Shown: in pieces, positions 1,403 through 47,591 of the stretch
Numbering within the stretch: position 1 is the stretch's first letter
Layout of the letters: every line of letters begins with the position of its first letter
Assembly: GCA_025924835.1 (NCBI GenBank)
Contig: JAICHO010000003.1
Coordinates: forward strand, 1-49,105
Reading direction: 5' to 3'
DNA length: 49,105 nucleotides
Origin: Candidatus Saccharimonadota bacterium
GTDB taxonomy: Bacteria > Patescibacteriota > Saccharimonadia > Saccharimonadales > JAICHO01
Translations under genes and position numbers: made by a program
Notes under the pieces: generated by a model
Database searches by the model: none
Seen by the model: the letters and a program-made list of their open reading frames with translations, nothing else
What the model was told of the DNA's origin: nothing

Positions 1403-1426
1403 AACAATGTAAATTGAGCGGCTTGA

Positions 1427-2095: not shown

Positions 2096-2104
2096 AAGTG
2101 ATAC

Positions 2105-2179
2105 TGGTGACCTCACCGGGAATCGAACCCGGATTGCCAGGATGAGAACCTGGTGTCCTAACCGTTAGACGATGAGGCC
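2105..2179 (-). tRNA. tRNA-Glu: tRNA-Glu (anticodon CUC), CCA encoded
   Basis: Reverse complement GGCCTCATCGTCTAACGGTTAGGACACCAGGTTCTCATCCTGGCAATCCGGGTTCGATTCCCGGTGAGGTCACCA. It has a 7-bp acceptor stem, a CCAGG/CCTGG anticodon stem with loop TTCTCAT, and a GGTTCGATTCC T-arm. Confidence 0.9.
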
Positions 2180-2262
2180 GGAAGCTTTTCAAAGCCGCCG
2201 AATTGTAACATAACAGAGATAAAATGGCTAGATAGCGGTCATCTATTGGCCAGTTACGAAAG

Positions 2263-3042: not shown

Positions 3043-3125
3043 AAAAACAAAGTCTATCTGTTGGTAATATAATCATTACCCCGACAGATTATTTTCTACA
3101 GCAAAGGAGGGGGTGGTAGAAATAG

Positions 3126-3153
3126 TTGAAAATTGTAAAAAACAGTTTATAAT
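3126..3153 (+). promoter_or_regulatory. sigma70-like promoter TTGAAA-16-TATAAT
   Basis: TTGAAA at 3126..3131 and TATAAT at 3148..3153. The -10 box abuts the track ATG (3154), so the second ATG (3166) is the likelier start. Confidence 0.5.
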
Positions 3154-3165
3154 ATGAGCCGGATT

Positions 3166-4266: not shown

Positions 4267-4298
4267 GGCGTCTCAAGCCTAATGCTAAAAGTCTTAGA

Positions 4299-4736
4299 TT
4301 AAACTAGCTGGGGTGCAGCTACGTCTTGGCTAAAAATATTATCAGGAAGGCGGTGAATATGCGCGGAGGGTTGACCTTTGGGCCTGAGGGCAAAATCCGT
4401 TAGTGCGAATTGCAGCTGACATTCTGACTCAGGAGCTATTTGTTCGCCTCCGGTTACTTCATAAGCCGCAGATACACCCGCAGCAATTACACCGGCTAGC
4501 ATCCAGGCTCGTAACTCGTCGCCTGGTCCGCGGTCGCGCTTTGAGCGGCCCTGTACTAATTGCATTAGTGCTCTGCCAACATTCGCGGCACCAGCTTCGC
4601 CTTCTACTAAAGGTACTTCTACGCGCCGCTGAACCTGAAATAATGATTGTGAAAGAAAATAAGAACTTCGTTCTGCTTCGTTTCTTGGCTGGTGTGCCAT
4701 TTCTACTGCATCACTGAATAGCGTACGCATATGCAA
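4299..4736 (-). CDS. hypothetical protein (145 aa)
   Basis: ORF only, divergent from 4837..7221. No recognisable motif. Confidence 0.45.
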   Translation of the reverse strand: MHMRTLFSDAVEMAHQPRNEAERSSYFLSQSLFQVQRRVEVPLVEGEAGAANVGRALMQLVQGRSKRDRGPGDELRAWMLAGVIAAGVSAAYEVTGGEQIAPESECQLQFALTDFALRPKGQPSAHIHRLPDNIFSQDVAAPQLV

Positions 4737-4800
4737 TTTATATCATTTAATGTGAGATTTCGAAATACTAATATTGTCGAGAGCATATTATTCTGAGTCA

Positions 4801-4828
4801 TTGTAAAATAACAGTAAAATTGTATAAT
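4801..4828 (+). promoter_or_regulatory. sigma70-like promoter TTGTAA-16-TATAAT
   Basis: TTGTAA at 4801..4806 and TATAAT at 4823..4828. The ATG at 4837 lies 8 nt after the -10 with no Shine-Dalgarno. Confidence 0.5.
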
Positions 4829-4836
4829 AGTAGCCT

Positions 4837-7221
4837 ATGAGCATGTCCGTGACACCAAGCGCCGAAAGGTTTGCGTCAAATTTGCCTATTCCAGACGCTG
4901 AAATTGACGATCTAACGGAATCATGCGAAGAATATTCAGCACAAGAACTAAAGGCTCAAATGTATGGAGTTATGGCTGAGCATCCTGAATCAGCTGACTT
5001 GCTGAGCGCATTAATGCGCTGCCTAGGTGATATTCCTGAAGCTGATGGAGTAGACACGGCCTTCCCTAATACCGATGATCCTGTACTTGAGTTGTTGTTT
5101 TGTGAGGGTTCATTAGGCACCGATGCGGAATCTATAAATATTATTCTGGAATACATGTATACCAGAAGAAGACAGCAGCTGGAGGATGCCTACAATACGA
5201 TCACACAACACCGGCCACTTCCTGATTTGTTCAAGGTTCTAGCAATTCTGGACTCTCCCGTTAATCCCAGCCCACGACTACAAACTGACCGTTTTGCACT
5301 ACTCGGTCTTCAGGCAAGTATATTGCAACGTACATTAACTAGATATGGATTGGTCACGGCATCGCAAGTACATCCGGCTCTAAATAATGACGCGTGGCGG
5401 GAATATACTATGGCCGCCAGGGCGCTTGAAGAGGATCCACCGGTTGCATTAGTGCAGGAGCTAGAACAACCTAATGACGAAGATTTTTTTATTAAAAAAC
5501 TAAGTGCTATTTATGAAATACGCGAAGAAATTGCAGAGTTATTGGGCTTAGCTAAGACGTTATCCGGGATAGACAACGACACTGGCCAGCCTCATGAAAT
5601 GGGTAGCCCCTTCACCGTTACCTCAACGGCCGTAATAAGCACTAAAGAAATAAACCCAGATCAAGGGTATGATCCAGATGACGTGGACCTGGAGCCCGCG
5701 GTTATTATAGAATCCATAGACGGCACAACCGGTATCATGCAGTTGGGTGATATTGCTAAATCATTTGCACGCGATAGGCTGTTTTTGAGTGACGAAATGT
5801 TATTTAGGATCGCGTTACTTGCAGCTCTAGCAGAAGGCGAAGATGTTGATGGCGTTAAACTTGGGTTTGCGGCAGCCTGTATAAGTTTGGCTAGTAATCG
5901 CACGATAGAGTTGTATGGGGCTCCTGGGGACACAAGCCTTGACAGCTTATTTAAGGACACTTTGGCTTTATCAAGCGTCGGCAATGCGATTGAAGAACGG
6001 GCTGCATCCGAGACTTGGCCAATCCGAGGCTCGCAGGAAGATTTGTCTGGCTCGCTGGGCGCATCAAATGTAGATGATCGTACCTTTAAGTATAGAGGGA
6101 CGGTAGAGCAAATTACAGATACATCAATCTATAATAGAATGCTTGTGTTTGATCCTGCAAACAATATAGCTGAGGGGACGGAATTACGCGGTGATAATTA
6201 TGATTTGGAAATCCGAACCGAGCTGCCGTTAGTCGATCATGGTGGATCTCGCCATTATATATTGCCGTATTTGGGAGGATTCGATGTAGTTGGGTATCAC
6301 CCCGTAGACGCTAGCTCTAACGAGCACATCGTAAGATATGTAGTCGCTCAGGAGGATCCATATTCTTTAGATAAGATTGAGGTAGATAGAATGCGGCTAT
6401 TCCAGCTGGCTGATAGGCTAGATGCAATAGGTCTAAGCGATGCGGCTGACAGTATTAGGCAACCGGAATGTCAAGTCCTGGCCGACGTATTTCGCAACTT
6501 GGAAAATAGTTTAGTCTACGGTAATGGCAGACGGCGGATAACCATTAAGGCAACAGAGCTTGAAGATTTGCGATATTTTGTTGAAGATGGGCAAATGATT
6601 GGCGTATGTAGCTTATTCGCGGCAATCGCTGCATTTAGCTTAGAGAAACTGGTGCCGGAGTCTAATCCTCGCATTATTGGTGGCCACAGAATTAACCCTT
6701 GGGGTATTAGCGAGGATGGTCACGCACAGGTAACGTATGGTTTACCTGGCCAGCGGGCCCAGATCATGGATCTCAACGCCCGAGGTGTTCGTACAAAGCG
6801 CCGAGTCACTGAAGCAGATACAAAAGATAATTCTTTGGAGTGGGCTGTTACCCGCGAAGAAGTTATTTCCACTACCGCCGGCAATATGCTAATTCACCTA
6901 AGTGGTGCGCTAGAAGCGAAGTATCGCGTACGAGGGACTCCAAGTCTAGCAAGGTATCTCGCAAATCTGCCTTTGGGTAACTTTGGGCGCCAGCTTTATA
7001 GTCTGCTGCTAAAAACAAGGAGTTTGCAGCCATCTGATACAAAAACTGGTATAGCAGAAGTTAAGATGGGCACCACACAACTACGCGAACAGCTTTCTGC
7101 GTGGCGATCTAATCATGATGAGACGAGAAATAATCTTACGCGTCATTTTGGTGATTGGAATCCGGAAGAAACTGACTTCTTGCTAGGTATTATTAGTAAT
7201 TTAGAAAAAGCTTTACTGTAG
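4837..7221 (+). CDS. large orphan protein (794 aa) with C-terminal transglutaminase-like Cys-His-Asp core
   Basis: Uninterrupted 2.4-kb ORF. Near the C-terminus it reads LVYGNG...GQMIGVCSLFAAIAAFSL...RIIGGH...EDGHAQVTYG...AQIMDLN. That matches the G-x-C-x2-FA ... H-A-x-V ... D layout of transglutaminase-like cysteine peptidases. Confidence 0.55.
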   Translation: MSMSVTPSAERFASNLPIPDAEIDDLTESCEEYSAQELKAQMYGVMAEHPESADLLSALMRCLGDIPEADGVDTAFPNTDDPVLELLFCEGSLGTDAESINIILEYMYTRRRQQLEDAYNTITQHRPLPDLFKVLAILDSPVNPSPRLQTDRFALLGLQASILQRTLTRYGLVTASQVHPALNNDAWREYTMAARALEEDPPVALVQELEQPNDEDFFIKKLSAIYEIREEIAELLGLAKTLSGIDNDTGQPHEMGSPFTVTSTAVISTKEINPDQGYDPDDVDLEPAVIIESIDGTTGIMQLGDIAKSFARDRLFLSDEMLFRIALLAALAEGEDVDGVKLGFAAACISLASNRTIELYGAPGDTSLDSLFKDTLALSSVGNAIEERAASETWPIRGSQEDLSGSLGASNVDDRTFKYRGTVEQITDTSIYNRMLVFDPANNIAEGTELRGDNYDLEIRTELPLVDHGGSRHYILPYLGGFDVVGYHPVDASSNEHIVRYVVAQEDPYSLDKIEVDRMRLFQLADRLDAIGLSDAADSIRQPECQVLADVFRNLENSLVYGNGRRRITIKATELEDLRYFVEDGQMIGVCSLFAAIAAFSLEKLVPESNPRIIGGHRINPWGISEDGHAQVTYGLPGQRAQIMDLNARGVRTKRRVTEADTKDNSLEWAVTREEVISTTAGNMLIHLSGALEAKYRVRGTPSLARYLANLPLGNFGRQLYSLLLKTRSLQPSDTKTGIAEVKMGTTQLREQLSAWRSNHDETRNNLTRHFGDWNPEETDFLLGIISNLEKALL

Positions 7222-10911: not shown

Positions 10912-11439
10912 ATGCTGAAACGAAAACAAGGAAGAGAACACGGTAGATTTGTAAGTGTAGTTGCGGGAACACTTTTGGGAATTGCGGTTCTAACGAGTTG
11001 CAGCGAAAGTGCTCCACAACCTCCTGTGGTAGATGCCGCTGCAAGTCCTGCTGACACATCTAAATTTAATGTGGCAACTAAAGAATGTGATAATTATGGA
11101 AAAGCCGTTGAAGCGGCTGCTAAATTCCTAGTACAGCACGCTGCGGACCAACAGCAGGTACCCCCCTATTGGCAGCGAGCTGTTGTGGTTAAGACGCTAT
11201 ATTCCCCTGGCAACACCGTTAGTGATTCTAGCTGGCAGGGTACGTTGGTCTTCCCTGACGGATCAATAAACCGACTCAGTTCTCCATACGAAGAAAATGT
11301 CAAAATGGCAGCGCTTGTAACTGTTGGTGACTATATTGCTTATAACAATAAGGATGGTGACGACAGAATTAATGCACCCGTAGGAAACCCTAAAGATGAG
11401 TTACGTTTTCTCGGGCACGGTGTTATATCTTGCGCATAG
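10912..11439 (+). CDS. putative lipoprotein
   Basis: Start at the ATG preceded by GGAGG. Signal peptide with lipobox LTSC (GTLLGIAVLTSCSES). Confidence 0.65.
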   Translation: MLKRKQGREHGRFVSVVAGTLLGIAVLTSCSESAPQPPVVDAAASPADTSKFNVATKECDNYGKAVEAAAKFLVQHAADQQQVPPYWQRAVVVKTLYSPGNTVSDSSWQGTLVFPDGSINRLSSPYEENVKMAALVTVGDYIAYNNKDGDDRINAPVGNPKDELRFLGHGVISCA

Positions 11440-11465
11440 ATATTTGCACAAAGCAAAAATAAAAC

Positions 11466-11867
11466 TCAGGAATTAAATTGTAGTTGGTCTAGGAATGCTA
11501 CCAGTTCTTTGGGAGTTACCTCTGCTTTGACGATATAGCCGTCGGCGTGGCTTTCCATGTCGGCGCGGCCTTGCTCGTCCAGTTCCAGATTTGTCGTGAT
11601 GATCACCTTGGCTTTTAACTGAGGCGTTTGTTTGAGATCCCGCAAACGGCGCAAAATCTCTGTACCGGTAAGATTGGGTAGCATGATGTCCAATAGTATA
11701 ATGTCATACTGGTTGGTCTGGGCGGCTTCTAGTGCCTGTTGTCCGTCAATGACCAGCTTGACGTCATATCCCGCCCGGGTCAAAGCCCGCACATACAAGT
11801 CGCTAATAAACTGCTCGTCTTCTATGATGAGTACTTTTTTACCGTTTGGGGCTGCGGGTTGGTCCAT
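11466..11867 (-). CDS. single-domain response regulator (receiver only)
   Basis: VLIIEDE, phospho-acceptor context ILLDIMLP, and ITTN/YIVKA motifs. No output domain. Confidence 0.85.
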   Translation of the reverse strand: MDQPAAPNGKKVLIIEDEQFISDLYVRALTRAGYDVKLVIDGQQALEAAQTNQYDIILLDIMLPNLTGTEILRRLRDLKQTPQLKAKVIITTNLELDEQGRADMESHADGYIVKAEVTPKELVAFLDQLQFNS

Positions 11868-11874
11868 TTGATAG

Positions 11875-13416
11875 TTACCTTCTATATAATGAGTGATTTT
11901 TAATCCAGCCGTGGGCGGTCCGTACTAGTTCATCACTATTATTGCCGCTTTTAAGCTCATCAGCAAGCGTGGCGTATGGTTTAAGTGTAAAACCGACTAC
12001 TGTTCCCTCGCCTTCCTTGGACTTAACCCATATGTCACCGCCGTGCGCGTTAATAATAGTTTTGCTTAGATATAGCCCCAATCCGGTGCCACTGACTTGG
12101 GATCGGTTGCGGTGATTGCGGTGGAATTTTTCAAACAGACTTGGTAATACGCTGCCCGGAATACCTACACCCTGGTCTTGCACTGTTGTTTCGACCAGTC
12201 CGTCCTTTGTCTTGGCGGCTTTGATGGTAATTTGTTTGCTGTTAGCACTGTATTTGATGGCATTGTCCAGCAGATTACAGATGACTTCATAGACGGTAAC
12301 CCGATCAGCCGCTACTGTCGGCAGGTCAGCGGCGATATCATATATAATTTCTTTCCCGAGCGGGCGGGCCCGTATCTCCATATCACTGCCAGCGCTTCTG
12401 ATTACTTCGTCCCATTTTTCTTCGCTTAGTTTTATCTCTAGCTGGTTTTGCTCAATACGCGCCACATTCAGGATGTTGTTAACAAAGGCGGAAAACTGTT
12501 GCGAAGATGCTTTCATGCGGTGCATAAACTCGGTCAGTTCGGGATCGGCTTTGCCGGCCAGCTCATCTTCTAACGCTTCTATATAGCCGCGTAGTACCGT
12601 GAGCGGCGTGCGCAGTTCGTGTACGGCCAGGGCCACAAAGTTCAAGGATTCATCGTCTTGGTTGTATTCCTGCGTACGATCAAAGAGCGTGATTATAAAC
12701 TCCACGCCTTTCGGGTTATCGCGGTTATAAAAAGCCGCCATATCGCATTGCCTAATGGCCTTGTCCTCTCCTGGAAGTTTTATTCGTACCCGTCGCCAAT
12801 AGGCCGAATCCGTTACCTTATCTTTCTGGCACTCTGTAATCCAGGATTCAAGGGTTCGGCTGCTGGGAAATTCCATGTCGGCTACGTCGTACAAAGCTTT
12901 GCCGAATAATGCCGTACTATCGGTGCCACAATACGCTAGTGCTGTCTCACTGGCGTATGTCACAAGCTGCTGTTTGTTAAAGACGAACACGGGCAAGGGT
13001 AAATGGTTTAATATCGTACTGGCTTGTGTGGCTTCGCGGCGATGTTCGGAAAGTATTTTGTTATCCTGCAGACTGGCGATTTGATACAGCTGATACGCCA
13101 GACTGGTCACGTATTGTCGCCCAATCCGCAAGTCTTCAAAAGTCGGCGCCTTAATACCGGCCTCATTGGGTGCTATGTGCAAAATCGCCTGTCCCATCGC
13201 CGCCAAGGGTAACTTGGCTAATGAGCCCGCGACGATACCAATTAAAGCTGAGCTTAAAACCATAGCCATACCCGAGATAGAAAGGATCTGCCACAATGGC
13301 AGTGCCGGATGGTGATACAGCCAGTAGCCTGCTCCAACTAAACCGACTTGTATCAGGAGGCTTACAAGCCATACCCGGGCACGTATTTGGGTTATTGCCT
13401 GGGTGAGGTGGTCCAT
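11875..13416 (-). CDS. membrane sensor histidine kinase
   Basis: Two N-terminal TM helices, H-box HELRTPLTVLRGY, N-box LLDNAIKYS, G1 DQGVGI and G2 GTGLGL. Confidence 0.9.
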   Translation of the reverse strand: MDHLTQAITQIRARVWLVSLLIQVGLVGAGYWLYHHPALPLWQILSISGMAMVLSSALIGIVAGSLAKLPLAAMGQAILHIAPNEAGIKAPTFEDLRIGRQYVTSLAYQLYQIASLQDNKILSEHRREATQASTILNHLPLPVFVFNKQQLVTYASETALAYCGTDSTALFGKALYDVADMEFPSSRTLESWITECQKDKVTDSAYWRRVRIKLPGEDKAIRQCDMAAFYNRDNPKGVEFIITLFDRTQEYNQDDESLNFVALAVHELRTPLTVLRGYIEALEDELAGKADPELTEFMHRMKASSQQFSAFVNNILNVARIEQNQLEIKLSEEKWDEVIRSAGSDMEIRARPLGKEIIYDIAADLPTVAADRVTVYEVICNLLDNAIKYSANSKQITIKAAKTKDGLVETTVQDQGVGIPGSVLPSLFEKFHRNHRNRSQVSGTGLGLYLSKTIINAHGGDIWVKSKEGEGTVVGFTLKPYATLADELKSGNNSDELVRTAHGWIKNHSLYRR

Positions 13417-38652: not shown

Positions 38653-38925
38653 TTAAGCTATAGAAAATCGTGGGACCATTTTATCTTGCCACTCAACTTG
38701 CTCCAACCAAACACTAAGGGGCCTTATAAATGTCAGGCGTTCTCCATACGCAGCTTGATAAATAACGCACAGTTCGTTGCTTGCCTCCAGGAATCCTAGG
38801 CTAATAACTTTATAAACCTTATCAGCACCTTTATAGTGCATGTACGTAGCGCCAATGGTTACCTTTAGCTTAGCAGCGGCTATTTCTTTTGCTAAATCCA
38901 GCTGTTCTTTGTGTGTCTTCCCCAT
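38653..38925 (-). CDS. DUF1653-like protein
   Basis: YMHYKGADKVYKVISLGFLEASNELCVIYQAAYGERLTFIRPLSVWLEQVEW matches the Y-x-HYKG...V-x-Y...RP...F pattern of DUF1653. Confidence 0.6.
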   Translation of the reverse strand: MGKTHKEQLDLAKEIAAAKLKVTIGATYMHYKGADKVYKVISLGFLEASNELCVIYQAAYGERLTFIRPLSVWLEQVEWQDKMVPRFSIA

Positions 38926-39046: not shown

Positions 39047-39418
39047 TTACTTGGCTGCTTCTAATTCGTGGCTAATCGCTGCGATTAATTGCTTAGGTGA
39101 AAAGTCGGACTTAACTATGTTCCGATGCACTCCAAGTTCTCGCGCCCTTTCTAGTTCTTTGCCAGATGATAGATTACTAATGATAATAATCTTGGACTTC
39201 ATTTTATCAAGATGCTTATAATTTTCTAGGAAATCAATGCCACCCATAACGGGCATCATAAGATCTAGTAGTATCAGGTCATACGTCTGTTCATCGCATT
39301 TAGCCAAGGCGGCCTTGCCGTCACTGGCTACTTCACATATGTAAGGCTGGGTAGACAATATTATTTTGTACGTCTCCCTCAATATAGGCTCGTCCTCAAC
39401 TATCAATATCCTGTGCAT
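39047..39418 (-). CDS. single-domain response regulator (receiver only)
   Basis: ILIVEDE, LILLDLMMP, IIIISN and NIVKS motifs. It lies directly downstream of the PAS kinase. Confidence 0.85.
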   Translation of the reverse strand: MHRILIVEDEPILRETYKIILSTQPYICEVASDGKAALAKCDEQTYDLILLDLMMPVMGGIDFLENYKHLDKMKSKIIIISNLSSGKELERARELGVHRNIVKSDFSPKQLIAAISHELEAAK

Positions 39419-39420
39419 TC

Positions 39421-40518
39421 CTAGCCCCCAATTGGTATGTAAATATGAAAGGTAGACCCAACTCCTGGTTGCGATTCAACATCGATTTTACCATTATGCA
39501 GATCAATAATTTTGTCTACCCAATACAAGCCAAGTCCGCTTCCGGAAACCCGGTGGGACATATCATTAGAAATGCGCTGAAACTTTTCAAATAATTTTGG
39601 TATATCTTCTGGGCTAATACCCACGCCACTGTCTTTGATTGCGATATGGACGTATTGATTCCCAGCTTCTGCAATGATTTCAATTTCGTCACCTTCATCC
39701 GAGTACTTAGAAGCGTTGTCAAGAATATTTTCTATGGCCATACGGAAGTATTGCTCATCAATATAACCCAAAAGCGCCCCCGATTGACGTGATAGCTTTA
39801 AAGATTGACCTTTGTCAGCCAGCACGCCCGAATATTGTTTTTGCAAACTAAGGAGTAGCGCGTTAAGATCATGTGCCTTTTTTCTAAGCACGACTTTACC
39901 CGCGTCCATCTGGGCCACCTGCAGAAGGTTATTTACGATTTCAATTTGTCGCTCGTTGCTTTCATACGTTTTTTCGATAATATTTAAAATATTCTCGGGC
40001 ATTGGGCCACCAAAACCTTCAATAAGTAGGCCCAGTAACTGTTTGATTGCGGTTGCTGGCGTTCGTAATTGGTGCGATGCCAAAGAAATAAAATCATCCT
40101 TAGCTTCGTTAAGCCGCTGTAATTCTTTTTGCTGCTCAAGCAACAACCTATTTGCTGCCTGCAGGCTGTCCTCGTGCTCTTTCCGTTCCGTTAGGTTACG
40201 GGTTACCTTAGCAAAACCCTGCAGCTCACCCTCATCGTCGTATAGGGCAGTAATTACTACATTGGCCCAAAACTTACTCCCGTCTTTTCGCACACGCCAG
40301 CCCTCGTCCTCTACGCGCCCTACCTCTTTTGCGATTTTCAGTTCACGCTCTGGCTTTTTATCCTCAATATCCTTTTGCATGTAAAAGTTCGAAAAATGCT
40401 TACCGATTATTTCACTGGGACGATAGCCTTTGGTCTTCTGCGCGCCCCTGTTCCAGGTCTGTATGTAACCGTCCGCATCCATAAAAAAGATAGCGTAGTC
40501 TTGTACGCTTTCAACCAA
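39421..40518 (-). CDS. cytoplasmic PAS-domain sensor histidine kinase, start codon uncertain
   Basis: PAS segment (VESVQDYAIFFMDADGYIQTWNRGAQKTKGY), H-box SHQLRTPATAIKQL, N-box ILDNASKYS, DSGVGI and GSGLGL. The track start is TTG 40518, but the frame is open upstream to 40650 with no ATG or GTG. Confidence 0.8.
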   Translation of the reverse strand: MVESVQDYAIFFMDADGYIQTWNRGAQKTKGYRPSEIIGKHFSNFYMQKDIEDKKPERELKIAKEVGRVEDEGWRVRKDGSKFWANVVITALYDDEGELQGFAKVTRNLTERKEHEDSLQAANRLLLEQQKELQRLNEAKDDFISLASHQLRTPATAIKQLLGLLIEGFGGPMPENILNIIEKTYESNERQIEIVNNLLQVAQMDAGKVVLRKKAHDLNALLLSLQKQYSGVLADKGQSLKLSRQSGALLGYIDEQYFRMAIENILDNASKYSDEGDEIEIIAEAGNQYVHIAIKDSGVGISPEDIPKLFEKFQRISNDMSHRVSGSGLGLYWVDKIIDLHNGKIDVESQPGVGSTFHIYIPIGG

Positions 40519-40747: not shown

Positions 40748-41698
40748 CTACGAGAGCTGATGAAAATAGTTTCTTTCTAAACTCTCAGGTCTAACAAAAG
40801 CATCTTCTACGATTCCGGATACAAAGAAGTCTATGGAAATTCCGGATACAGGATTTGTATAAATGCAGCCTTCAATCTTGCGGTTGGTCCCAGCTACTTG
40901 TACCACTTTTGGTGTTTTCTCAAGCACCCCGTAATAAGCTTCCGCTAGACCCTCAAACTGTGCTTCAACCGTGGCTCTATCCATCTCGCTCACAGCAATA
41001 ATATCCAGGTCCCCGTACATACCAGGTCGTAATGTAACACTTGGCCCGCTATCACCGTTGGCACTACCGGTTAAAAAGTAATGTATACCGTACTGCAGCC
41101 CAGCCAAACGAAGCTGAGCGACAAACATACAGTCTTCCATTGACAAAGAGGTGTTACGGATAGCCTCACCGTAAATCTCCATGACAGTTGTACCTTCAAA
41201 AACGGAGGCTGGCTTTGGCCTATATGCGGTCTGGTGCCTTGACTCAGGTATAATACGACACATATCAGTTTGGTTTGGCGGCATAACTACAATTGGTGAC
41301 CCAGGCAGCAATCGTGGCGCGATGGCGTCGTATGCTTTGCCAGAAGGTAGCACGTGCTTTTCTTTCATTGGCCCTTTGCCTGCAATCATGATTCCATACA
41401 ATTTGGCGTCCTCTGGAACTTTACCTAGTGCCATCATAAAAGGATCGTCAGTATCCGTAAGGCTGCGTTCTATGACGTGACCGCCGTAGCCTTCGTCTTC
41501 ACCTGCCAGGATACACGCGATCAGCCGTCCGCTGAAAGGTGCCTGGGCAAGAGCAAGCTCACCGAGCACGTCAGCCTTTGCCAGTTCAAGCCGGCCAGGT
41601 ACTTTGATTAATGGGAAGGTGTCAATCACATCCACATCCTGCGGCATTACCCTCGGGAATCGGACCATATCTATATCATGAATAACCGAATTGCTCAC
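40748..41698 (-). CDS. orphan protein with C-terminal pol-beta-superfamily nucleotidyltransferase-like signature
   Basis: A GTG start overlaps the upstream stop by 1 nt (TAGTG). The C-terminal third reads HYFLTGSANGDSGPSVTLRPGMYGDLDIIAVSE ... GISIDFFVSG, which follows the G[SG]...DxD...D pattern. The N-terminal ~170 aa are unrecognised. Confidence 0.45.
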   Translation of the reverse strand: MSNSVIHDIDMVRFPRVMPQDVDVIDTFPLIKVPGRLELAKADVLGELALAQAPFSGRLIACILAGEDEGYGGHVIERSLTDTDDPFMMALGKVPEDAKLYGIMIAGKGPMKEKHVLPSGKAYDAIAPRLLPGSPIVVMPPNQTDMCRIIPESRHQTAYRPKPASVFEGTTVMEIYGEAIRNTSLSMEDCMFVAQLRLAGLQYGIHYFLTGSANGDSGPSVTLRPGMYGDLDIIAVSEMDRATVEAQFEGLAEAYYGVLEKTPKVVQVAGTNRKIEGCIYTNPVSGISIDFFVSGIVEDAFVRPESLERNYFHQLS

Positions 41699-42405
41699 TA
41701 GTAATGCCCTAAGTCGTATGTATTGTCCTGGGACGTATAGAATTCATGGCTGCCCAAATTCTGGATATTCTCAATCGTGGACTTAAACACTTTGTCTTGC
41801 TTGCATAGCTCATCAAAGGTGAGCCAAGCGTTATTGCCACCATCGTAGTCATTAGTTAGCTCACCTGATACGTTTTTGGCTACGAGAATAACGAACAGCT
41901 TGTCTTCCAATAATATTTCGTTGGTGGCAAAATCACGAACACGCCGGAAACCACGGATACTAAAATCAGCATCCAGGCCGGCTTGCCTTTTAAGCTGTCG
42001 TTTGGCGGTAGCTTCAAAAGATTCACCCCATTCGGCACGTCCATGAACTTCGCTCCAATATCCATAAAAAGGATTTCGGGATCTTTTTTGTACCAAATAA
42101 AGCCGCTCCCCGACTTCATTTACTTTAGCTATAACCATGAGGATCGAAACTTTTGGCTGTTTTTCAACCGACCTACGCTGCTCGTTTAAGCTATTGGCGT
42201 ATTCTTTGCCTACCGGCGTGAGCTGATATTGGCCATTTTCTAGTTTTGTCACGTATCCCGATTTAACCAGCTTACGAAGATGGAACTTAAAGGTGTCGCT
42301 GGTGTGTTTGGTCGGGTGCATGAGCGCGTTGAAACGCTCCGATTCCGTATATCGAAGCGAGTGCAGGATAGATACCTGAGTTCTATGTAGTTGCGTTTCG
42401 CCCAT
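41698..42405 (-). CDS. winged-helix + pseudo-Nudix protein (putative nucleotide-ligand-sensing regulator)
   Basis: wHTH segment (FKFHLRKLVKSGYVTKLENGQYQLTPVGK). The Nudix scaffold is retained as GRAEWGE-SFEATAK-RQLKRQAGL, that is G-x5-E-x7-R-Q-L-K-R-Q-x-G-L with the REUxEE glutamates replaced. Confidence 0.6.
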   Translation of the reverse strand: MGETQLHRTQVSILHSLRYTESERFNALMHPTKHTSDTFKFHLRKLVKSGYVTKLENGQYQLTPVGKEYANSLNEQRRSVEKQPKVSILMVIAKVNEVGERLYLVQKRSRNPFYGYWSEVHGRAEWGESFEATAKRQLKRQAGLDADFSIRGFRRVRDFATNEILLEDKLFVILVAKNVSGELTNDYDGGNNAWLTFDELCKQDKVFKSTIENIQNLGSHEFYTSQDNTYDLGHY

Positions 42406-42459
42406 TTTGCCAACCTTACTAAAGTTAATTATATAACAAAACGGCCTAAAACACCAGCT

Positions 42460-42479
42460 TAGGGTACTAATTTACCCTA
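42460..42479. promoter_or_regulatory. 20-bp inverted repeat TAGGGTA-N6-TACCCTA (candidate operator)
   Basis: Perfect 7-bp arms at 42460..42466 and 42473..42479, in the 145-nt divergent intergenic region between 42405 and 42551. Confidence 0.4.
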
Positions 42480-42550
42480 GAATGCTATCCCTGTATTTGT
42501 AAAAGTAGGCGCCAGGCGAGCACCTATTAAGCAATACATAAGGAGTAGTC

Positions 42551-43177
42551 ATGAGCAATAAAGACACAGCTAATGCTTTTGAAGTAGTTGAGGTAACACC
42601 CTGGAACGAGCTTGAAGGAATGCTACGTGAAATCCCGTTATATGGCCAGCCGGATACACGCCCATATGCCGACGCAGACATCAGCATTGAGCGGTTCAGA
42701 CTTTCTGAGCTTGTCCCAACCACCAGATATGTTGTGCGGCAGTTAGTAGAAGTCCAAGCGAATCTTCGGACGGCTTTATTGCCACAAGGTTATGACCAAC
42801 TGGACCTGCGAGCCGGGAGACTAATTTTAGCCAGTCAAAACAGTACCGTTCGTATCATGCCCCCCATTGTTGAGCGCTTTAAGCCCGAGGGCCTGGCCAA
42901 GTATATACTTGACGGATCGCACCGGGCGCAGTTGACATGGCAACTTGCGGCAGAAACAGGTATTGAAGAGCCTGAACTCACTGTCATATATGTCAGGAAT
43001 GGTATCACCTACCCACCGTACGCCCTGCCTAACGCCTGGGAAGAAGTCCAGGTTGTACCCGAGCGTCCCGCGGACAAATCAGTATGGAAAAATTACAGGA
43101 ACTTTCCAAATAGGTATGACCTGTACCGTGACTATGACGGCATTATAGACAGTAAGCCGCGTGGCCTTGATGAGTAA
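42551..43177 (+). CDS. ParB/sulfiredoxin-fold domain protein
   Basis: AAGGAG Shine-Dalgarno. ISIERFRLSELVPTTRYV ... RIMPPIVERF...KYILDGSHRAQL matches the ParB N-terminal-domain layout with a DGxHR core. Confidence 0.55.
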   Translation: MSNKDTANAFEVVEVTPWNELEGMLREIPLYGQPDTRPYADADISIERFRLSELVPTTRYVVRQLVEVQANLRTALLPQGYDQLDLRAGRLILASQNSTVRIMPPIVERFKPEGLAKYILDGSHRAQLTWQLAAETGIEEPELTVIYVRNGITYPPYALPNAWEEVQVVPERPADKSVWKNYRNFPNRYDLYRDYDGIIDSKPRGLDE

Positions 43178-43589
43178 ACAGCTTAAAATTTATATTGGTT
43201 GTTCGTTGACGCACGCGCCGGCAGAGTTTCGTAGTGCGGTGGAGGGCTTAAAACAAAGCCTGCGGCCAAGGTACCATATATATGACTTCCTTGGTTTGAA
43301 AAAGGGTACCATTGAGCAAGTCTACCAGTGGGATATTAAAAAGTGTGTCGCCGGGTGCGATTTGTTTGTTGCCATATGCGATTATGCTAGCCTGGGGCTG
43401 GGTTATGAACTGGGCGCTGCCGTAGAGGCATATGGCAAATTAGTGTTGGCCGTGGCGCATAAAAATGCGAACATCAGCCGCCTTATTCAAGGTATTGATT
43501 CCCCGCATTTTAACTTTGAGCGATATACTCATTTATCCGAAGTCAGTAAATATATTGAGTCAAAGCTCAAAATTGCTGACTTAGCTTAA
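43170..43589 (+). CDS. nucleoside 2-deoxyribosyltransferase / Rcl-like Rossmannoid protein
   Basis: KIYIGCSL first strand, and CDLFVAICDYASLGLGYELGAAVEAYGKLVLAV with Glu at the catalytic position of the family. ATG 43170 overlaps the upstream stop (ATGAGTAA). The track start is GTG 43161. Confidence 0.5.
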   Translation: MSKQLKIYIGCSLTHAPAEFRSAVEGLKQSLRPRYHIYDFLGLKKGTIEQVYQWDIKKCVAGCDLFVAICDYASLGLGYELGAAVEAYGKLVLAVAHKNANISRLIQGIDSPHFNFERYTHLSEVSKYIESKLKIADLA

Positions 43590-43640: not shown

Positions 43641-44033
43641 CTAGGTACCAGTCTGACTCGCATCAAAATTGTCGTTAAATGCTTTTACGGTATCAGCAAG
43701 TTCGGTTGTAATTTCAGGCGCAGCTGGCGGTCCAAAGCCCGCCATCAGAAAATGGCCCCCGGAATCATAAATAAAGTGTACATGAGCAATTCTGTCTGGA
43801 ACATCTGGGCCAGACGCTGTGATATTTTGCTGTCCCGTGGCTGGGTGCTGGGCATGGTCTATACTAATGCCGCCAAGCGTAACAACAGTCCTAACAAAAT
43901 TGTCCGGACCGTCAAACGGAGTCACCTCAGCCAGTGGGCTCACTGCTGCACCAAAACTAAACCGTTCCAGCTCGGCTTCAAGCCGAGCTTCAGGCTCTCC
44001 TGGCCTAAAAATCAAATCATCCATTCCTGCCAT
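43641..44033 (-). CDS. hypothetical protein (130 aa)
   Basis: ORF only. Confidence 0.5.
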   Translation of the reverse strand: MAGMDDLIFRPGEPEARLEAELERFSFGAAVSPLAEVTPFDGPDNFVRTVVTLGGISIDHAQHPATGQQNITASGPDVPDRIAHVHFIYDSGGHFLMAGFGPPAAPEITTELADTVKAFNDNFDASQTGT

Positions 44034-44102
44034 AAACTAAGAATATAATGTAAATGTTAGTACGTCAATAACGGCAATTGCCTAGCATATTTGCAGATAA
44101 AA

Positions 44103-44423
44103 TTATTGGCTGTAAAGCCATCGCAAGGAGGCCGAAGGCTCCAGGTGAGGTGGTGATGTCATCTGGATAAGGAACCGCCCGTCTTGATCGGGGTCTTCCG
44201 GATCTATTTCTGTGTAAATCTCAAATAACCCCGCCCGTTCATCCGGATCTTTACCCATATAATACGCAACAGCTTGTGCCAAAAATCTCAATTCATCATC
44301 ATTAAATCCCCACCCTTCCGCGCCATCTGCCGCTTCTTGGACTTCAAGAGCGAACAGTATGCCTGCTTCATCCCAGCTAAAAGGCGGAAATAAATCTATG
44401 GTAATTCTATCTTGACTAGTCAT
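44103..44423 (-). CDS. small acidic hypothetical protein (106 aa)
   Basis: ORF only. Strongly acidic (DPEDPDQDG, EVQEAADGAEGWGFNDDE). Confidence 0.5.
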   Translation of the reverse strand: MTSQDRITIDLFPPFSWDEAGILFALEVQEAADGAEGWGFNDDELRFLAQAVAYYMGKDPDERAGLFEIYTEIDPEDPDQDGRFLIQMTSPPHLEPSASLRWLYSQ

Positions 44424-44486
44424 AAAGATATCATATCAAAAACAGATTATGCATTGATTGCTGGTTGGCTTTAAGACCCTCAGTTG

Positions 44487-44846
44487 CTAACGGTCCAAGG
44501 CTATTTTTACCAACGCCCGCATAAAAAGACTATTAACTAAAACCTCGGCTAAGGCCAGTGGGCTCATCGGGTCAATATCGTGCTGAATATGTGCTCCGCC
44601 ATATTCCATGAATACGGTAGATAAATGGAAATTTCCCCATCGGTCCTTAGCAAGTGTTTGGTACGCACGGCGATTATCTATTTCTCCTTCAGCGCGTATT
44701 CTTTCTGTTTTATTTTCGCTGGGGCACCCACCATCTAGCTTCACACCACTGCCTTTAAGCTCAGGAATGCTTAGCAACTCATTTTTGCCCAGTAAGCTGT
44801 CATGCACATGCTGGGTTAAGCGGTATGCCTCGTAAACTTCAGTCAT
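44487..44846 (-). CDS. hypothetical protein (119 aa)
   Basis: ORF only. Confidence 0.5.
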   Translation of the reverse strand: MTEVYEAYRLTQHVHDSLLGKNELLSIPELKGSGVKLDGGCPSENKTERIRAEGEIDNRRAYQTLAKDRWGNFHLSTVFMEYGGAHIQHDIDPMSPLALAEVLVNSLFMRALVKIALDR

Positions 44847-44943
44847 AAATTAATAATAAAATAAATACAAGAGAACGTCAATACAGACATGGTCTTGTTT
44901 TTAATAATTGATGGAGAGAGATGAACTAAGGTAGTATAAGCTT

Positions 44944-45252
44944 ATGAACATCAAAGAAATCCCTAGCGGGACGGTGCATAAAATGCCGCCGGATTTACAA
45001 AAGGCTTTGGCGTCTAATGCTAAGGCGCTGGCAGCGTGGGATAACATTACGCCGCTGGCGCGGAATGAGTGGATTTGCTGGGCTATAACGGTCAAGCAAG
45101 CGGCGACCAGGAAAAACCACATAGAACGGACTATTACAGAATTGCAGCAAGGCAAACGCCGCCCGTGCTGCTGGATAGGTTGCATCCACCGCCAGGACAA
45201 AGCCATAAGCCCATCGGTACGTTGGGTGCTGAATAAACGACCTAAATCATAA
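44944..45252 (+). CDS. YdeI/OmpD-associated (OmdA-like) family protein
   Basis: PPDLQKALASNAKALAAWDNITPLARNEWICWAITVKQAATRKNHIERTITELQQGKRRPCCW matches the family pattern. Confidence 0.55.
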   Translation: MNIKEIPSGTVHKMPPDLQKALASNAKALAAWDNITPLARNEWICWAITVKQAATRKNHIERTITELQQGKRRPCCWIGCIHRQDKAISPSVRWVLNKRPKS

Positions 45253-45253
45253 T

Positions 45254-45652
45254 CTAAAAATTAATCGTTACGTCGGTATCAATCATTGTTGAACCACTCG
45301 CATCAAGGTTAAATGAAGTCAATCGCGGATACATTACCACGACCCTAACATTGCAAAGTAACGAACCTGCTGCTTTCCAGGTAAAGGCAGTGTTGAAACC
45401 TTCAATCCTTGGGGGTCCATCCAAGATACTATATCTGCTGTTTTCTGCAACGGTTTGTTTGTCATCTTCAGAGAGGTCCGAAGGATAGACATTGCCTGCT
45501 TCATCTTGAACCCAGTCGCCTGTTTCTAGCAAAGTTACTAGGTTTTGTAAGCGGTACTTTGCCTCTGTGCCTAATGCTTCCGGACTTTGGATATCTTCAG
45601 CTAGAGTCTCTATAAAATTTTGAAAAGCTTGTTCGGCACCGTATTCGTTCAT
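45254..45652 (-). CDS. hypothetical protein (132 aa)
   Basis: ORF only. Convergent with 44944..45252, with a 1-nt gap between the stop codons. Confidence 0.5.
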   Translation of the reverse strand: MNEYGAEQAFQNFIETLAEDIQSPEALGTEAKYRLQNLVTLLETGDWVQDEAGNVYPSDLSEDDKQTVAENSRYSILDGPPRIEGFNTAFTWKAAGSLLCNVRVVVMYPRLTSFNLDASGSTMIDTDVTINF

Positions 45653-45824: not shown

Positions 45825-47591
45825 ATGGACTTTGACATCACGTTAAATAGACCGTTTAACAGTTTTAAAACCTCTGTAAGTGCTCAGGGGCTTAATAAAT
45901 TCGTAATTTTGACGGGGCGTAATGGTGCTGGCAAATCGCAATTACTTCAGCTACTAAGCAGTGCAAACTACTCATCGCCCACTCCCGAAGGTGTAACAAC
46001 GATCACGATAGATGGAGAGAACGTACAACGTAATCAAGTACTGCACCTGGCTTCTTGGCAGATGCCGTCAGCTAATCCTACAAGTGCTGCTGAACTAAAT
46101 ACGGTATCATCGCAGGTTAGTGGCGCAATAAATCAGCTAATGCAAGGCAATACTGACGCGGTTATACAGAACTTCCCTACATTAAGTCCAAAGCAACTTG
46201 CGGAACTCACACAGCTTGTCCCTATTTTGCGATCTGAAGGATTTGATATTTACACAAATCCCCACGATTTTGATCGCGACATTTTTCCCAGGCTATCTTC
46301 AGATTTTGATAATCATACTGCCGAGATGGTAAATGAGAGAATAAGCCGAATAATTTATAAGGCTCATTTTACGGCTCTCGATGAGCGCCGGGATCTAACT
46401 CGAGAAGAAGACCCTATAAAAGTTTTTAATGATTTATGTGTTGAGTTTGATATGAAATTTCATCTTCAGCCTTTTGAAACCGCCTTACGACCTTATATCC
46501 CTACACTTTTGGATGAAGATGAAAATCGAATAGATTGGGCGCAACTGAGTGCAGGTGAAATGGTAATCTTCAGAATAATAACTTGGCTATTTTATCATCG
46601 CCAAAATCATACTTTATATCCAAAACTGTTATTACTAGATGAACCGGATGCACATTTAACTCCTAAAATGATTAGGAAATTCATCGATTCTATTCAGAAT
46701 GTTTTGGTAAACCAAATGGGTATTGCGGTAATTATGACCACTCATAGTCCTAATACAGTGGCACTTGTAGATGAAGATGCACTATATGAACTTACACGCA
46801 ATCATGGCGACCATAGCATAGAGAAAATAACTAAACATGATGCACTTATCACTTTTTCTGAAGGATTGTTGTTTGTGCAAGAAAAGACCAAACTAGTATT
46901 TTTGGAAGGAAAAGCAGACACACCTTTTTATAATAAGCTGTATGAGATAGCGGTTACTAAACATGGTTTTAGCAACAACCCTTCCTTAAAATTTATGGCC
47001 GTAAGTGAAGATGACCCCGATGAAGGAGGATGTACAAAGGTATTGGCGATGGTGCGCAAGTTTGAGGGCACTACCTTGCTAGACATCATCAATGGCATTA
47101 TTGATCGTGATAAGAATAACCAGCCCACTACTAATGTTAAGGTTTTGAATCGATACTCAATAGAAAATTACTTATATGACCCTATAGCAATACTGGTGTC
47201 GCTAATTAGATCTGGGGAGCATAAGAACTTCATAGATTCTATAGCACATATCGATACCAACGATATTGAGGTGGTGCTAACCAATAGCGCATTATTGCAA
47301 AGTTCTATCGATTCTATTATTACGCATTTAAAGTCGTCACAATCGAAAAAACTTGAGGAATCTCTTGTCGATTGTTCTATCAAAACTAAATTCGAACCAG
47401 GTATTTTAAACTATAAGCTGCCAAAGTGGTTTATTGATATGAAAAAGTCAGATTTAATGAGTGATACGATTTGGAAAAACGGTCAGCCGTTGAAGCCCCA
47501 TATCACTGAGCGGCAACAATATTTAGCTATGGACTCAGCAGGTTTTATCCACGAAGATTTATACGACCTGCTGTCTAACCTGATTGGGTAG
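45825..47591 (+). CDS. OLD-family / fused PARIS (AriA-AriB)-like ABC ATPase + TOPRIM(DUF4435-like) protein
   Basis: Walker A GRNGAGKS, signature-like LSAGE, Walker B LLLLDEPDAHL, H-loop TTHSP. The C-terminal half then has LVFLEGKADTPFYNKL (TOPRIM Glu), GIIDRDKN (DxD) and RYSIENYLYDP. Confidence 0.7.
   Translation: MDFDITLNRPFNSFKTSVSAQGLNKFVILTGRNGAGKSQLLQLLSSANYSSPTPEGVTTITIDGENVQRNQVLHLASWQMPSANPTSAAELNTVSSQVSGAINQLMQGNTDAVIQNFPTLSPKQLAELTQLVPILRSEGFDIYTNPHDFDRDIFPRLSSDFDNHTAEMVNERISRIIYKAHFTALDERRDLTREEDPIKVFNDLCVEFDMKFHLQPFETALRPYIPTLLDEDENRIDWAQLSAGEMVIFRIITWLFYHRQNHTLYPKLLLLDEPDAHLTPKMIRKFIDSIQNVLVNQMGIAVIMTTHSPNTVALVDEDALYELTRNHGDHSIEKITKHDALITFSEGLLFVQEKTKLVFLEGKADTPFYNKLYEIAVTKHGFSNNPSLKFMAVSEDDPDEGGCTKVLAMVRKFEGTTLLDIINGIIDRDKNNQPTTNVKVLNRYSIENYLYDPIAILVSLIRSGEHKNFIDSIAHIDTNDIEVVLTNSALLQSSIDSIITHLKSSQSKKLEESLVDCSIKTKFEPGILNYKLPKWFIDMKKSDLMSDTIWKNGQPLKPHITERQQYLAMDSAGFIHEDLYDLLSNLIG

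Follow-up and report, generated by a model that had tools for sequence, protein, structure and literature searches.

PUA-Calcineurin-CE-HAD of E. coli ECOR28 (bioRxiv 2026) senses m6-dAMP and aborts infection by a collapse of the deoxynucleoside triphosphate (dNTP) pool (PMC12871103). Its trigger is a modified deoxynucleoside monophosphate (dNMP), and its enzymes form a cascade in which HAD converts dNTP to the diphosphate dNDP and Calcineurin-CE then converts dNDP to dNMP (PMC12871103). This system is the closest validated analogue of a cassette of four small genes, here called A to D, located in a 49,105-bp stretch of contig JAICHO010000003.1 (hereafter the window), which is a chromosome segment of Saccharibacteria (TM7, Patescibacteria), the close relatives of its genes all coming from Candidatus Saccharimonadales metagenome-assembled genomes (MAGs). 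The cassette is a member of no named system and works most like the CE-effector/HAD nucleotide-depletion systems and the NrtR-type Nudix regulators. We tentatively read it, with a little less than an even chance, as a ligand-gated, self-repressed two-operon module that would degrade deoxynucleotides, probably those of pyrimidines, and would serve as an accessory infection-responsive system.

Like PUA-Calcineurin-CE-HAD, the cassette combines a putative nucleotide-binding sensor with a candidate phosphoesterase and a second enzyme, and in sister loci its ParB-CE protein is paired with the HAD-family protein NT5C, fusions of ParB-CE with HAD existing as well. Unlike in that system, no PUA or calcineurin/metallophosphatase match was found with Pfam in the four cassette proteins, the phosphoesterase candidate having a ParB/sulfiredoxin (Srx) fold. 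The second enzyme of the window is predicted to be an N-glycosidase and not a HAD protein, there is an extra protein composed of a pseudo-cytidine deaminase (pseudo-CDA) and a nucleotidyltransferase (NTase), and gating is apparently transcriptional, by a winged-helix (wHTH) protein and an operator, and not by filament assembly.

The individual components have other relatives. Gene C passes the model of the ParB-CE clade (PF24392) and keeps its nucleotide-binding motifs PPIVE and DGxHR; relatives in this clade are fused to HD-CE, HD, Nudix and HAD domains, and many Saccharimonadales copies are stand-alone chromosomal genes. B resembles NrtR and AraR in having a degenerate Nudix domain as a putative ligand sensor together with a winged helix, and in the palindromic operator that precedes genes of nucleotide metabolism; AraR (5bs6) is one of its weak matches in the Protein Data Bank (PDB). 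Unlike NrtR, which has an N-terminal Nudix domain and a C-terminal winged helix, B carries the winged helix first (residues ~5-80) and the Nudix domain second (~85-205), is without sequence-level membership and is always co-translated with an NTase partner. Such a comparison with NrtR-type regulators of reversed domain order had been drawn in an earlier interpretation made from the letters and open reading frames (ORFs) only (hereafter the sequence-only reading), and both the degenerate box and the wHTH-first order were found. D is most similar to DNPH1/Rcl, a 2'-deoxynucleoside 5'-phosphate N-hydrolase that also acts as 5-hmdUMP N-hydrolase and is its best profile match, and keeps the catalytic Tyr, Asp and Glu and the phosphate-binding Ser; unlike DNPH1/Rcl, with which it shares an identity of about 20-25%, it does not reach PF05014 and belongs to a family specific to the Candidate Phyla Radiation (CPR). 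The N-terminal part of A has the fold and motif register of homotetrameric CDA (Cdd/CDA, PF00383), but window A, unlike CDA, is without zinc ligands and catalytic Glu and continues into an NTase; such fusions were found in Patescibacteria only. The B-A pair also recalls AbiE, with a wHTH autoregulator followed by an overlapping NTase gene, an inverted-repeat operator and weak AbiEi matches; unlike AbiE, there is no AbiEii signature in A, Nudix-like and CDA-like domains are added, and a divergent hydrolase operon is obligatory.

The invariant core and its exchangeable effectors

Eight independent intact Saccharibacteria loci (the window, L001, L004, L005, L006, L014, L024/25 and L026) were found to carry the cassette, their proteins being 40-78% identical. 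In all eight, B is immediately followed by an A protein with an inactive CDA domain, and this pair faces a divergent operon which begins with or contains a dNMP hydrolase. The divergent operon consists of ParB-CE and Rcl-like genes in the window and L014, and of ParB-CE and NT5C genes in L001, L004, L005 and L006, where NT5C, a 5'(3')-deoxyribonucleotidase of the HAD family (PF06941), takes the position of D. In L024/25 it includes an Rcl-like gene, NT5C, an active-CDA/NTase paralogue and a second Rcl-like gene with no ParB-CE, and in L026 an Rcl-like gene lies at the contig edge with no ParB-CE seen. ParB-CE is therefore optional (6/8 loci), and the invariant core is B, A, a GGGTA-N6-TACCC operator and at least one dNMP hydrolase. 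Recurrence of this layout in eight independent loci is more than chance would give; conserved linkage in related genomes had been named beforehand as a test by the sequence-only reading, which had described four linked genes, and the linkage of B, A and a dNMP hydrolase stood while ParB-CE proved not to be obligatory. Since an N-glycosidase is replaced by a non-orthologous phosphatase at one operon position, the required step seems to be dNMP destruction, and this swapping of effectors points to a shared dNMP-destroying output and to the mix-and-match habit of conflict systems. The cassette is sporadic and its chromosomal position is variable.

In the window, all four ORFs are present exactly where the sequence-only reading had placed them, and the start/stop overlaps in both pairs, the 145-nt control region and the palindrome within it could all be read in the sequence (Table 1). 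The stop codon of B and the start codon of A overlap by 1 nt, TAG and GTG sharing the G to give TAGTG, while the ATG of D lies within the final codons of C (ATGAGTAA), so that C and D overlap by 8 nt. The spacer between B-A and the divergent C-D occupies positions 42406..42550.

Judged by its motifs, B combines a winged helix with a Nudix domain that is catalytically dead. The scaffold of the Nudix box is kept and the three metal-binding glutamates of REUxEE are replaced, as had been proposed from the letters, and the same replacements occur across the eight orthologues, with L004 reading HQFTRQ. As the RQLKRQ substitutions are themselves conserved, a conserved non-catalytic role is indicated, ligand binding rather than decay, and ligand binding is the most likely role predicted for the pseudo-Nudix domain. 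Kinship of this domain with the Nudix domains fused to ParB-CE was not detectable by BLASTP, and searching PADLOC-DB 2.0 with B gave weak wHTH and Nudix matches only. A second protein with a wHTH of the DUF7347 type and a Nudix domain with a likewise degenerate box is encoded at 1427..2116 of the window (minus strand, 229 aa); it is a paralogue of B (phmmer E 5e-17) and abuts tRNA-Glu, with no GGGTA-N6-TACCC site nearby. The two proteins suggest a small family of Nudix-sensor regulators in this genome.

The core of the palindrome is invariant and its flanks diverge in the spacer alignments (six loci aligned). In the 49-kb window there is a single exact copy of the pattern, as there is in each B-bearing locus record (nine records, seven distinct loci), always at the same intergenic position, and none was found in 25 other fetched loci. 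As it accompanies B even in L024 and L026, where ParB-CE is absent, it tracks B and not ParB-CE and is an obvious predicted operator. Its centre lies ~37 bp upstream of a conserved A/T box containing TATAAT, i.e. about where a -35 element would sit. The box may be the -10 element of the B-A promoter, an assignment made from conservation only, and it was missed by the consensus promoter scan for want of a -35 match. A second, partly conserved spacer element, TTTG(T/C)(A/G)AAAGTA (42496..42510), lies between the operator and C and is found at the same position in L005 and L006; it could be part of the C-D promoter or provide another binding site. No Rfam match was found in the intergenic region, and no intrinsic terminators were found at the expected cassette places in the consensus scan.

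Gene A has no matches in Pfam, NCBIfam, PADLOC or PHROG and is rare, with 24 relatives among 5.8e9 clustered proteins; it is carried by 1 of 185,579 species genomes, genome counts being lower bounds obtained with narrow peptide patterns because the broad ParB-CE and A alignments are too divergent for a related-locus search. Its AlphaFold2 (AF2) model (predicted local distance difference test, pLDDT, 92.2) was matched by Foldseek to EfCDA and to the CDA of B. subtilis, yeast and mouse (E 1e-5 to 1e-4, template modelling (TM) score 0.65-0.69, target-length normalised), and its sequence profile was matched in the PDB to B. subtilis CDA 1ux1 (E 3.4e-5) with the same motif register. At the HAE and PCxxC columns, window A and every B-linked member carry PFM and PSGKA; being without all the zinc ligands and the catalytic Glu, window A cannot deaminate. 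In the C-terminal third, G211, S212, D230 and D232 do not vary among the A-family sequences, all of which have either Asp or Glu at the position of D290. Foldseek placed this region with the terminal NTases GLD-2, URT1, TUT7 and CutA (E ~1e-3, probability 0.92-1.0), and no sequence-level NTase family match was obtained with Pfam or with the profile against the PDB. From its motifs and its model, A is a dead deaminase joined to a probably live NTase with an intact catalytic triad. The C-terminal pol-beta NTase recognised by the sequence-only reading was thus borne out by motifs and Foldseek, and the ~170-aa N-terminal domain which it had called unrecognisable turned out to be an inactivated cytidine deaminase.

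A always lies directly downstream of B, and the inactive-CDA proteins are found only beside B, the active-CDA paralogues being without it. HAE and PCxxC are kept in the paralogues of L024, L027, L028, L036 and P0024, of which those of L024 and L027 pass PF00383. These active CDA/NTase fusions (L024 2120..3109, minus strand; L027 4803..5741; L028 2257..3207; L036 4758..5852; P0024) are mostly stand-alone and come from Saccharibacteria and one Candidatus Moraniibacteriota MAG. Among the sequences searched here, the pseudo-CDA/NTase fusion and the wHTH/pseudo-Nudix regulator were each found only in Patescibacteria. There is also a decayed A in L007 (5412..6690), an inverted partial duplication without B, C or D, and in L026 (1588..2537) A is split at about residue 160 by an apparent frameshift, which may be a sequencing error.

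D as a single sequence matched Rcl/DNPH1 in the PDB at E 0.02, and the family profile built from 30 sequences matched Rcl/DNPH1 at 7e-7, the CMP glycosidase MilB at 0.011 and nucleoside 2-deoxyribosyltransferase (NDT) at 0.04. Y8, D55 and E80, corresponding to the catalytic Tyr, Asp and Glu (of GYELG) of DNPH1, are invariant in these 30 sequences. No match to Pfam PF05014 was obtained for window D at E <= 1, and a precomputed match exists in 6/67 of the D homologues; the family is bacterial and CPR-specific, with about 67 clusters. D is accordingly predicted from its sequence to be a dNMP hydrolase of the DNPH1/Rcl type and not a transferase. The sequence-only reading had left both open under the label "nucleoside 2-deoxyribosyltransferase/Rcl-like", of which the second half is retained (profile match, Tyr-Asp-Glu kept); an NDT proper is disfavoured, as the DNPH1/Rcl match is four to five orders of magnitude better.

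Table 1 Genes, domains, motifs and spacer elements of the cassette in the window
Feature	Position	Strand	Description
Gene A	40748..41698	-	316-aa ORF; pseudo-cytidine-deaminase + pol-beta NTase fusion (predicted)
A, cytidine-deaminase fold	41219..41596	-	Residues ~35-160; tetrameric CDA type
A, PSGKA replacing PCxxC	41327..41350	-	Motif column of CDA
A, PFM replacing HAE	41426..41449	-	Motif column of CDA
A, NTase domain	40751..41146	-	Residues ~185-316, C-terminal third
A, hGS motif	41051..41074	-	G211-S212
A, DLD motif	40991..41014	-	D230-L-D232
A, third carboxylate (SIDFF)	40820..40837	-	D290
Gene B	41698..42405	-	235-aa ORF; N-terminal winged helix + degenerate Nudix domain
B, winged helix	about 42166..42393	-	Residues 5-80; sub-threshold Pfam matches HVO_A0261_N, DUF7347, HTH_45
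B, Nudix domain	about 41791..42153	-	Residues 95-205; Pfam NUDIX E 2.4e-11
B, Nudix box	41974..42042	-	G-x5-E-x7-RQLKRQ-x-GL in place of REUxEE
A/T box GTTAATTATATAACAAAAC	42424..42442	-	Conserved; reverse complement contains TATAAT; candidate -10 of B-A promoter
Operator-like palindrome TAGGGTA-N6-TACCCTA	42460..42479	.	Perfect 7+7; core GGGTA-N6-TACCC
Gene C	42551..43177	+	208-aa ORF; ParB-CE (ParB/sulfiredoxin fold, predicted)
C, PPIVE motif	42860..42874	+	Srx-like; P104, P105, E108
C, DGSHR motif	42911..42925	+	Srx-like; D121, G122, H124, R125
Gene D	43170..43589	+	139 aa from ATG; DNPH1/Rcl-like 2'-deoxynucleoside 5'-phosphate N-glycosidase (predicted)
D, Y8 motif	43188..43214	+	Catalytic Tyr
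D, D55 motif	43323..43334	+	Catalytic Asp
D, GLGYELG	43395..43415	+	Catalytic Glu E80
D, ISRLIQG	43473..43493	+	Phosphate-binding Ser103

Gene C, the ParB-CE family and the genomic setting

C passes Pfam PF24392 with 50.8 bits against a cut-off of 23, covering model positions 4-146 of 147, and a precomputed match to this family exists in 49/50 close homologues. Its AF2 model (pLDDT 92.6) was matched by Foldseek to proteins of the ParB/Srx fold only, namely Noc, Atu1540, sulfiredoxin and the serine kinases SerK and SbnI. P104, P105, E108, D121, G122, H124 and R125 are invariant or near-invariant in 60 diverse ParB-CE members. By its profile match and its model, C has an NTP-binding ParB/Srx core and is a member of the ParB-CE clade, in keeping with the ParB/sulfiredoxin-type core seen in the letters; the domain guesses made in this way for all four proteins were right by Pfam, profile, Foldseek and motif evidence. 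In a 2025 survey, ParB-fold proteins were described as binding CTP, ATP or GTP and as having enzymatic as well as switch roles (PMC12704722).

An exhaustive hidden Markov model (HMM) search gave 563 ParB-CE clusters at 50% identity, most of them ~200-aa stand-alone proteins, and the fusions carry NUDIX (with intact REUxEE), HAD, HD or HD-CE (PF24391) domains. The "-CE" names of Pfam, that of PF24392 included, presumably derive from Nicastro, Burroughs, Iyer & Aravind (NAR 2023). That work reportedly predicted Calcineurin-CE, HD-CE, PRTase-CE and particular versions of ParB and MazG to be nucleotide-degrading immune effectors. Our full-text literature search, whose reach does not extend to Nicastro et al. 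2023, returned nothing relevant on ParB-CE, PF24392 or HD-CE.

ParB-CE genes are repeatedly linked to genes for enzymes of the thymidylate branch. L035 contains, in an ordinary chromosomal setting (791..6357), a tight operon coding for DCD (381 aa), a ThyX-like protein (590 aa), ParB-CE, ParB-CE/HAD and Tmk; there is no dut gene in this operon, and its ParB-CE/HAD protein may supply the dUTP-to-dUMP step. The gene of ParB-CE protein P0186 is directly followed by that of a Tmk/dNK-like kinase, and in L004 the whole cassette forms one block with DCD and a Tmk-ThyX fusion between rplA and rplJ. L023 has an HD-CE+ParB-CE fusion followed by HD-Tmk, with a TIR gene and transposases near, and in L020-22 a ParB-CE+Nudix fusion is inserted in the secE-nusG-rplKA cluster. 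An HD+ParB-CE fusion is located in L018 among thymidylate-synthase-like, 5-hydroxymethyldeoxyuridine (5-hmdU)-DNA-kinase, Tmk-like and HD-dNK-Tmk genes. From this company of phosphohydrolases and of the dCTP -> dUMP -> dTMP -> dTDP branch, pyrimidine deoxynucleotides are predicted to be the substrates.

The L018 fusion is flanked by two triads (3264..5934 and 11096..13375), each consisting of a Tmk-like kinase, a 5-hmdU-DNA-kinase helical-domain protein and a thymidylate-synthase-like protein, and the 73-kb contig also has an Xre/ImmA (M78) pair and an NTPase_I-T gene; the locus looks like a thymidine-hypermodification or modified-nucleotide-sensing cluster. ParB-CE genes lie inside the conserved secE-nusG-rplK-rplA-rplJ-rplL cluster in two unrelated CPR-type genomes (L004 3958..11280 and L020 2168..4493), and this insertion site may be an integration hotspot.

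To the right of the cassette, at a distance of 2.2 kb, there is a 588-aa gene (45825..47591, plus strand) coding for an OLD-type ABC ATPase with a C-terminal DUF4435 (Toprim-like) domain, the best PADLOC matches of which are ATPase-Toprim_I-B (3e-22) and, in addition, AriA/AriAB of PARIS. Five small orphan ORFs (43641..45652) lie between them in a stretch of lower GC content (0.38-0.44); one small ORF among these orphan genes (44944..45252, plus strand) has an OmdA/YdeI (bacteriocin-protection) domain, E 4.5e-18. The orphan/OLD-like stretch as a whole has a GC content of 0.426, with 0.468 for the cassette and 0.471 for the window. The OLD/PARIS-like gene that the sequence-only reading had pointed out in an orphan island bordering the cassette is thus present, and it is likely to be a separate single-gene defence element. 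The neighbours in L024 include an SLFN/AlbA_2 protein that matches PDC-S50 and, judging by its sequence, a large serine recombinase; the window and L024 are the two loci with mobile or defence-type neighbours.

To the left of A there are genes for a DUF1653 protein (38653..38925), a receiver-only response regulator (39047..39418) and a PAS histidine kinase (39421..40518), all on the minus strand. The two-component genes were considered as cassette members and rejected, since a gap of 229 nt carrying a separate promoter-like site lies between them and A, and they show no synteny in the other loci. A pair of DUF1653 and response-regulator genes also lies near a stand-alone ParB-CE in L030, which hints at local synteny within the order.

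Weighing the explanations

In the scheme that we prefer, the infection-responsive module, a B dimer bound to the palindrome would repress both divergent promoters until the pseudo-Nudix pocket binds a ligand of the NDP-X type. A, translationally coupled to B and made stoichiometrically with it, would use its pseudo-deaminase pocket to bind a nucleoside or nucleotide of cytosine, which might carry a modification, and its NTase would convert the captured compound into the ligand of B or would nucleotidylate a partner. Once induced, C would produce dNMP by cleaving (d)NTP or (d)NDP at a phosphoanhydride bond, and this dNMP is what D would destroy, yielding the base and deoxyribose-5-phosphate, or which in the sister loci NT5C would convert to nucleoside and Pi, so that the pool would be drained irreversibly. 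The most likely use of such a device would be to answer an infection, either by depleting dNTPs or by clearing the pyrimidine pool of modified nucleotides, in the way of PUA-Calcineurin-CE-HAD with transcriptional instead of filament-based gating.

What speaks for this scheme is the conservation of the core in 8/8 loci with swapped effectors, the Rosetta-stone fusions of ParB-CE with NUDIX, HAD and HD or HD-CE, the rarity and variable position of the cassette, the ParB-CE membership and fold of C with the literature prediction attached to it, the conserved pseudo-Nudix box, the validated analogue, the restriction of inactive-CDA A proteins to the neighbourhood of B, the two loci with mobile or defence-type neighbours, and the presence of two pseudo-enzymes as sensors. 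A number of observations weigh against it. No PADLOC-DB 2.0 system match was obtained for A, C or D, as the sequence-only reading had expected of the named systems, nor for ten relatives or partners except an unrelated neighbour in L024; tblastn of the ParB-CE relative P0142 against 50,697 phage and 72,556 plasmid records gave no match, and neither did IMG/VR scans with the A and C alignments. The GC content of the cassette is native, 6/8 cassette contexts are housekeeping ones (ribosomal genes, RF1/PrmC, Obg), and in Saccharimonadales ParB-CE is often a solitary gene whose chromosomal position is conserved, e.g. near ftsH-tilS in several lineages; elsewhere it takes part in Dcd-ThyX-ParB-CE-ParB-CE/HAD-Tmk operons of metabolic appearance. 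Consensus sigma-70 promoters were not found by the scan at the expected cassette places, the role of ligand-maker given to A is pure inference, and we know of no biochemical activity for ParB-CE proteins, A or B. Of the nucleotide-centric conflict system suggested by the sequence-only reading, the nucleotide-acting domains were therefore upheld, through ParB-CE membership and the validated dNTP-depleting analogue, and the defence role gained no support from PADLOC, the evidence of the genomic context being mixed. A phage origin of the cassette was rejected in view of the empty phage, plasmid and IMG/VR searches and of the generic character of the remaining matches (Nudix and NT5C in PHROGs, ParB folds in BFVD).

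A more specific version of the infection-responsive scheme, which we regard as unlikely, is a pseudo-enzyme relay where the dead CDA of A would capture a phage-derived, possibly modified cytosine nucleotide, the NTase would make from it a messenger of the NDP-X type, and B would read this messenger and derepress the ParB-CE/Rcl operon destroying dNTPs.

Housekeeping control or salvage of the pyrimidine deoxynucleotide pool is a real possibility, although on the whole a doubtful one, and what keeps it alive is that ParB-CE genes recur beside those of Dcd, ThyX and Tmk in normal chromosomal surroundings. Membership in housekeeping families such as those of dNMP salvage had been named by the sequence-only reading as an outcome that would count against it. 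Saccharibacteria take nucleotides from their hosts, and like other CPR bacteria they have to scavenge every nucleotide they use. B would here be a repressor of the CytR, DeoR or NrtR kind that senses the substrate and controls an inducible route of catabolism or sanitation. In this route ParB-CE, together with a HAD protein in the cases that have one, would be the phosphohydrolase taking dUTP/dNTP to dNMP, perhaps as a non-orthologous dUTPase, and Rcl or NT5C would route surplus or damaged dNMPs (dUMP, 5-hmdUMP) to base and deoxyribose-5-phosphate or to nucleosides. The L035 operon, which lacks dut exactly where the dUTP-to-dUMP step is needed, the L004 block and the kinase gene following that of P0186 agree with such a role, as do the housekeeping contexts of most cassette loci, the stable position of stand-alone ParB-CE near ftsH-tilS, the native GC content and the repressor-operator design typical of catabolic regulons. 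However, the cassette is far too rare for core metabolism, a pair of pseudo-enzyme sensors and the exchange of effectors would be more usual in a conflict system, conflict effectors were the basis on which the Pfam family was defined, dNMPs are destroyed by Rcl and NT5C instead of being passed on to ThyX, and the HD-CE+ParB-CE relative in L023 lies beside a TIR gene and transposases.

It is quite improbable that B and A form a toxin-antitoxin (type IV) or abortive-infection pair of the AbiE kind to which C-D are mere neighbours, with B as the wHTH autorepressor antitoxin and A as an NTase toxin acting on RNA or tRNA 3' ends, CCA being recognised by its cytidine-binding domain. Weak PADLOC matches to AbiEi (E 8.5e-4 to 0.02) do exist for the wHTH region of B, abiEi-abiEii is mirrored in the order of autoregulator and NTase, in the 1-nt overlap and in the inverted-repeat operator, and RNA 3'-terminal transferases are the best structural matches of the A NTase. 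But no AbiEii/DUF1814, MenT or other toxin-family signal was found in A with Pfam or PADLOC, and the C-terminal domain of B is Nudix-like and not the AbiEi C-domain. Active-CDA homologues of A occur alone without an antitoxin (L027, L028, L036) or in an enzyme operon (L024), so that the fold is not intrinsically toxic, and the divergent dNMP-hydrolase operon, linked in 8/8 loci, is not incidental to B-A.

Even less probable is the detoxification of host-made cytosine-nucleoside antibiotics or analogues, which A would bind through its CDA-like pocket and inactivate by nucleotidylation in the ANT-type manner, C and D clearing the phosphorylated analogues. Blasticidin-S deaminase has the CDA fold, Saccharibacteria live on Actinobacteria, and D is distantly similar to MilB, which belongs to nucleoside-antibiotic pathways; the DNPH1 match of D is nevertheless far better than that to MilB, no transporter or resistance-type neighbours were found, and the links of ParB-CE go to dTMP-branch enzymes.

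It is hardly credible that C is an ordinary chromosomal ParB/Noc partition or nucleoid protein, Noc being its top Foldseek match (E 9e-3), or that the cassette makes a hypermodified DNA base, as the gene content around the L018 fusion could suggest: partition is rejected, as C, with its 208 aa, has neither an HTH nor a dimerisation domain and can be aligned to the ParB N-domain over only ~110 residues, there is no ParBc or HTH Pfam match, no parA or parS in the neighbourhood, no plasmid match and no ParB-CE relative in plasmid or phage records, and the window cassette contains no base-modifying enzyme (thymidylate-synthase-like gene, kinase, glycosyl- or aminotransferase).

Attack on the nucleotide pool is an emerging immune principle, represented by dCTP deaminase, dGTPase and PUA-Cal-HAD, and of the CPR bacteria, Saccharibacteria included, neither the defence nor the nucleotide homeostasis is known in more than outline. 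For these questions the cassette is a compact and fully specified test set, with four small proteins having high-confidence models, a 20-bp operator and natural swaps of single components. It could assign an activity to ParB-CE, reveal the role of the CDA/NTase fusion and establish a second, reversed-order class of Nudix-sensor transcription factors. Should the metabolic explanation be true, the cassette would represent a non-orthologous dUTP/dNTP-processing route linked to thymidylate synthesis. Should the pseudo-enzyme relay be true, it would be the first example both of a nucleotide-depletion immune system that is wired through transcription and of a defined defence mechanism in Saccharibacteria, which are ultra-small and depend on a host, and would provide the first activity for the ParB-CE clade.

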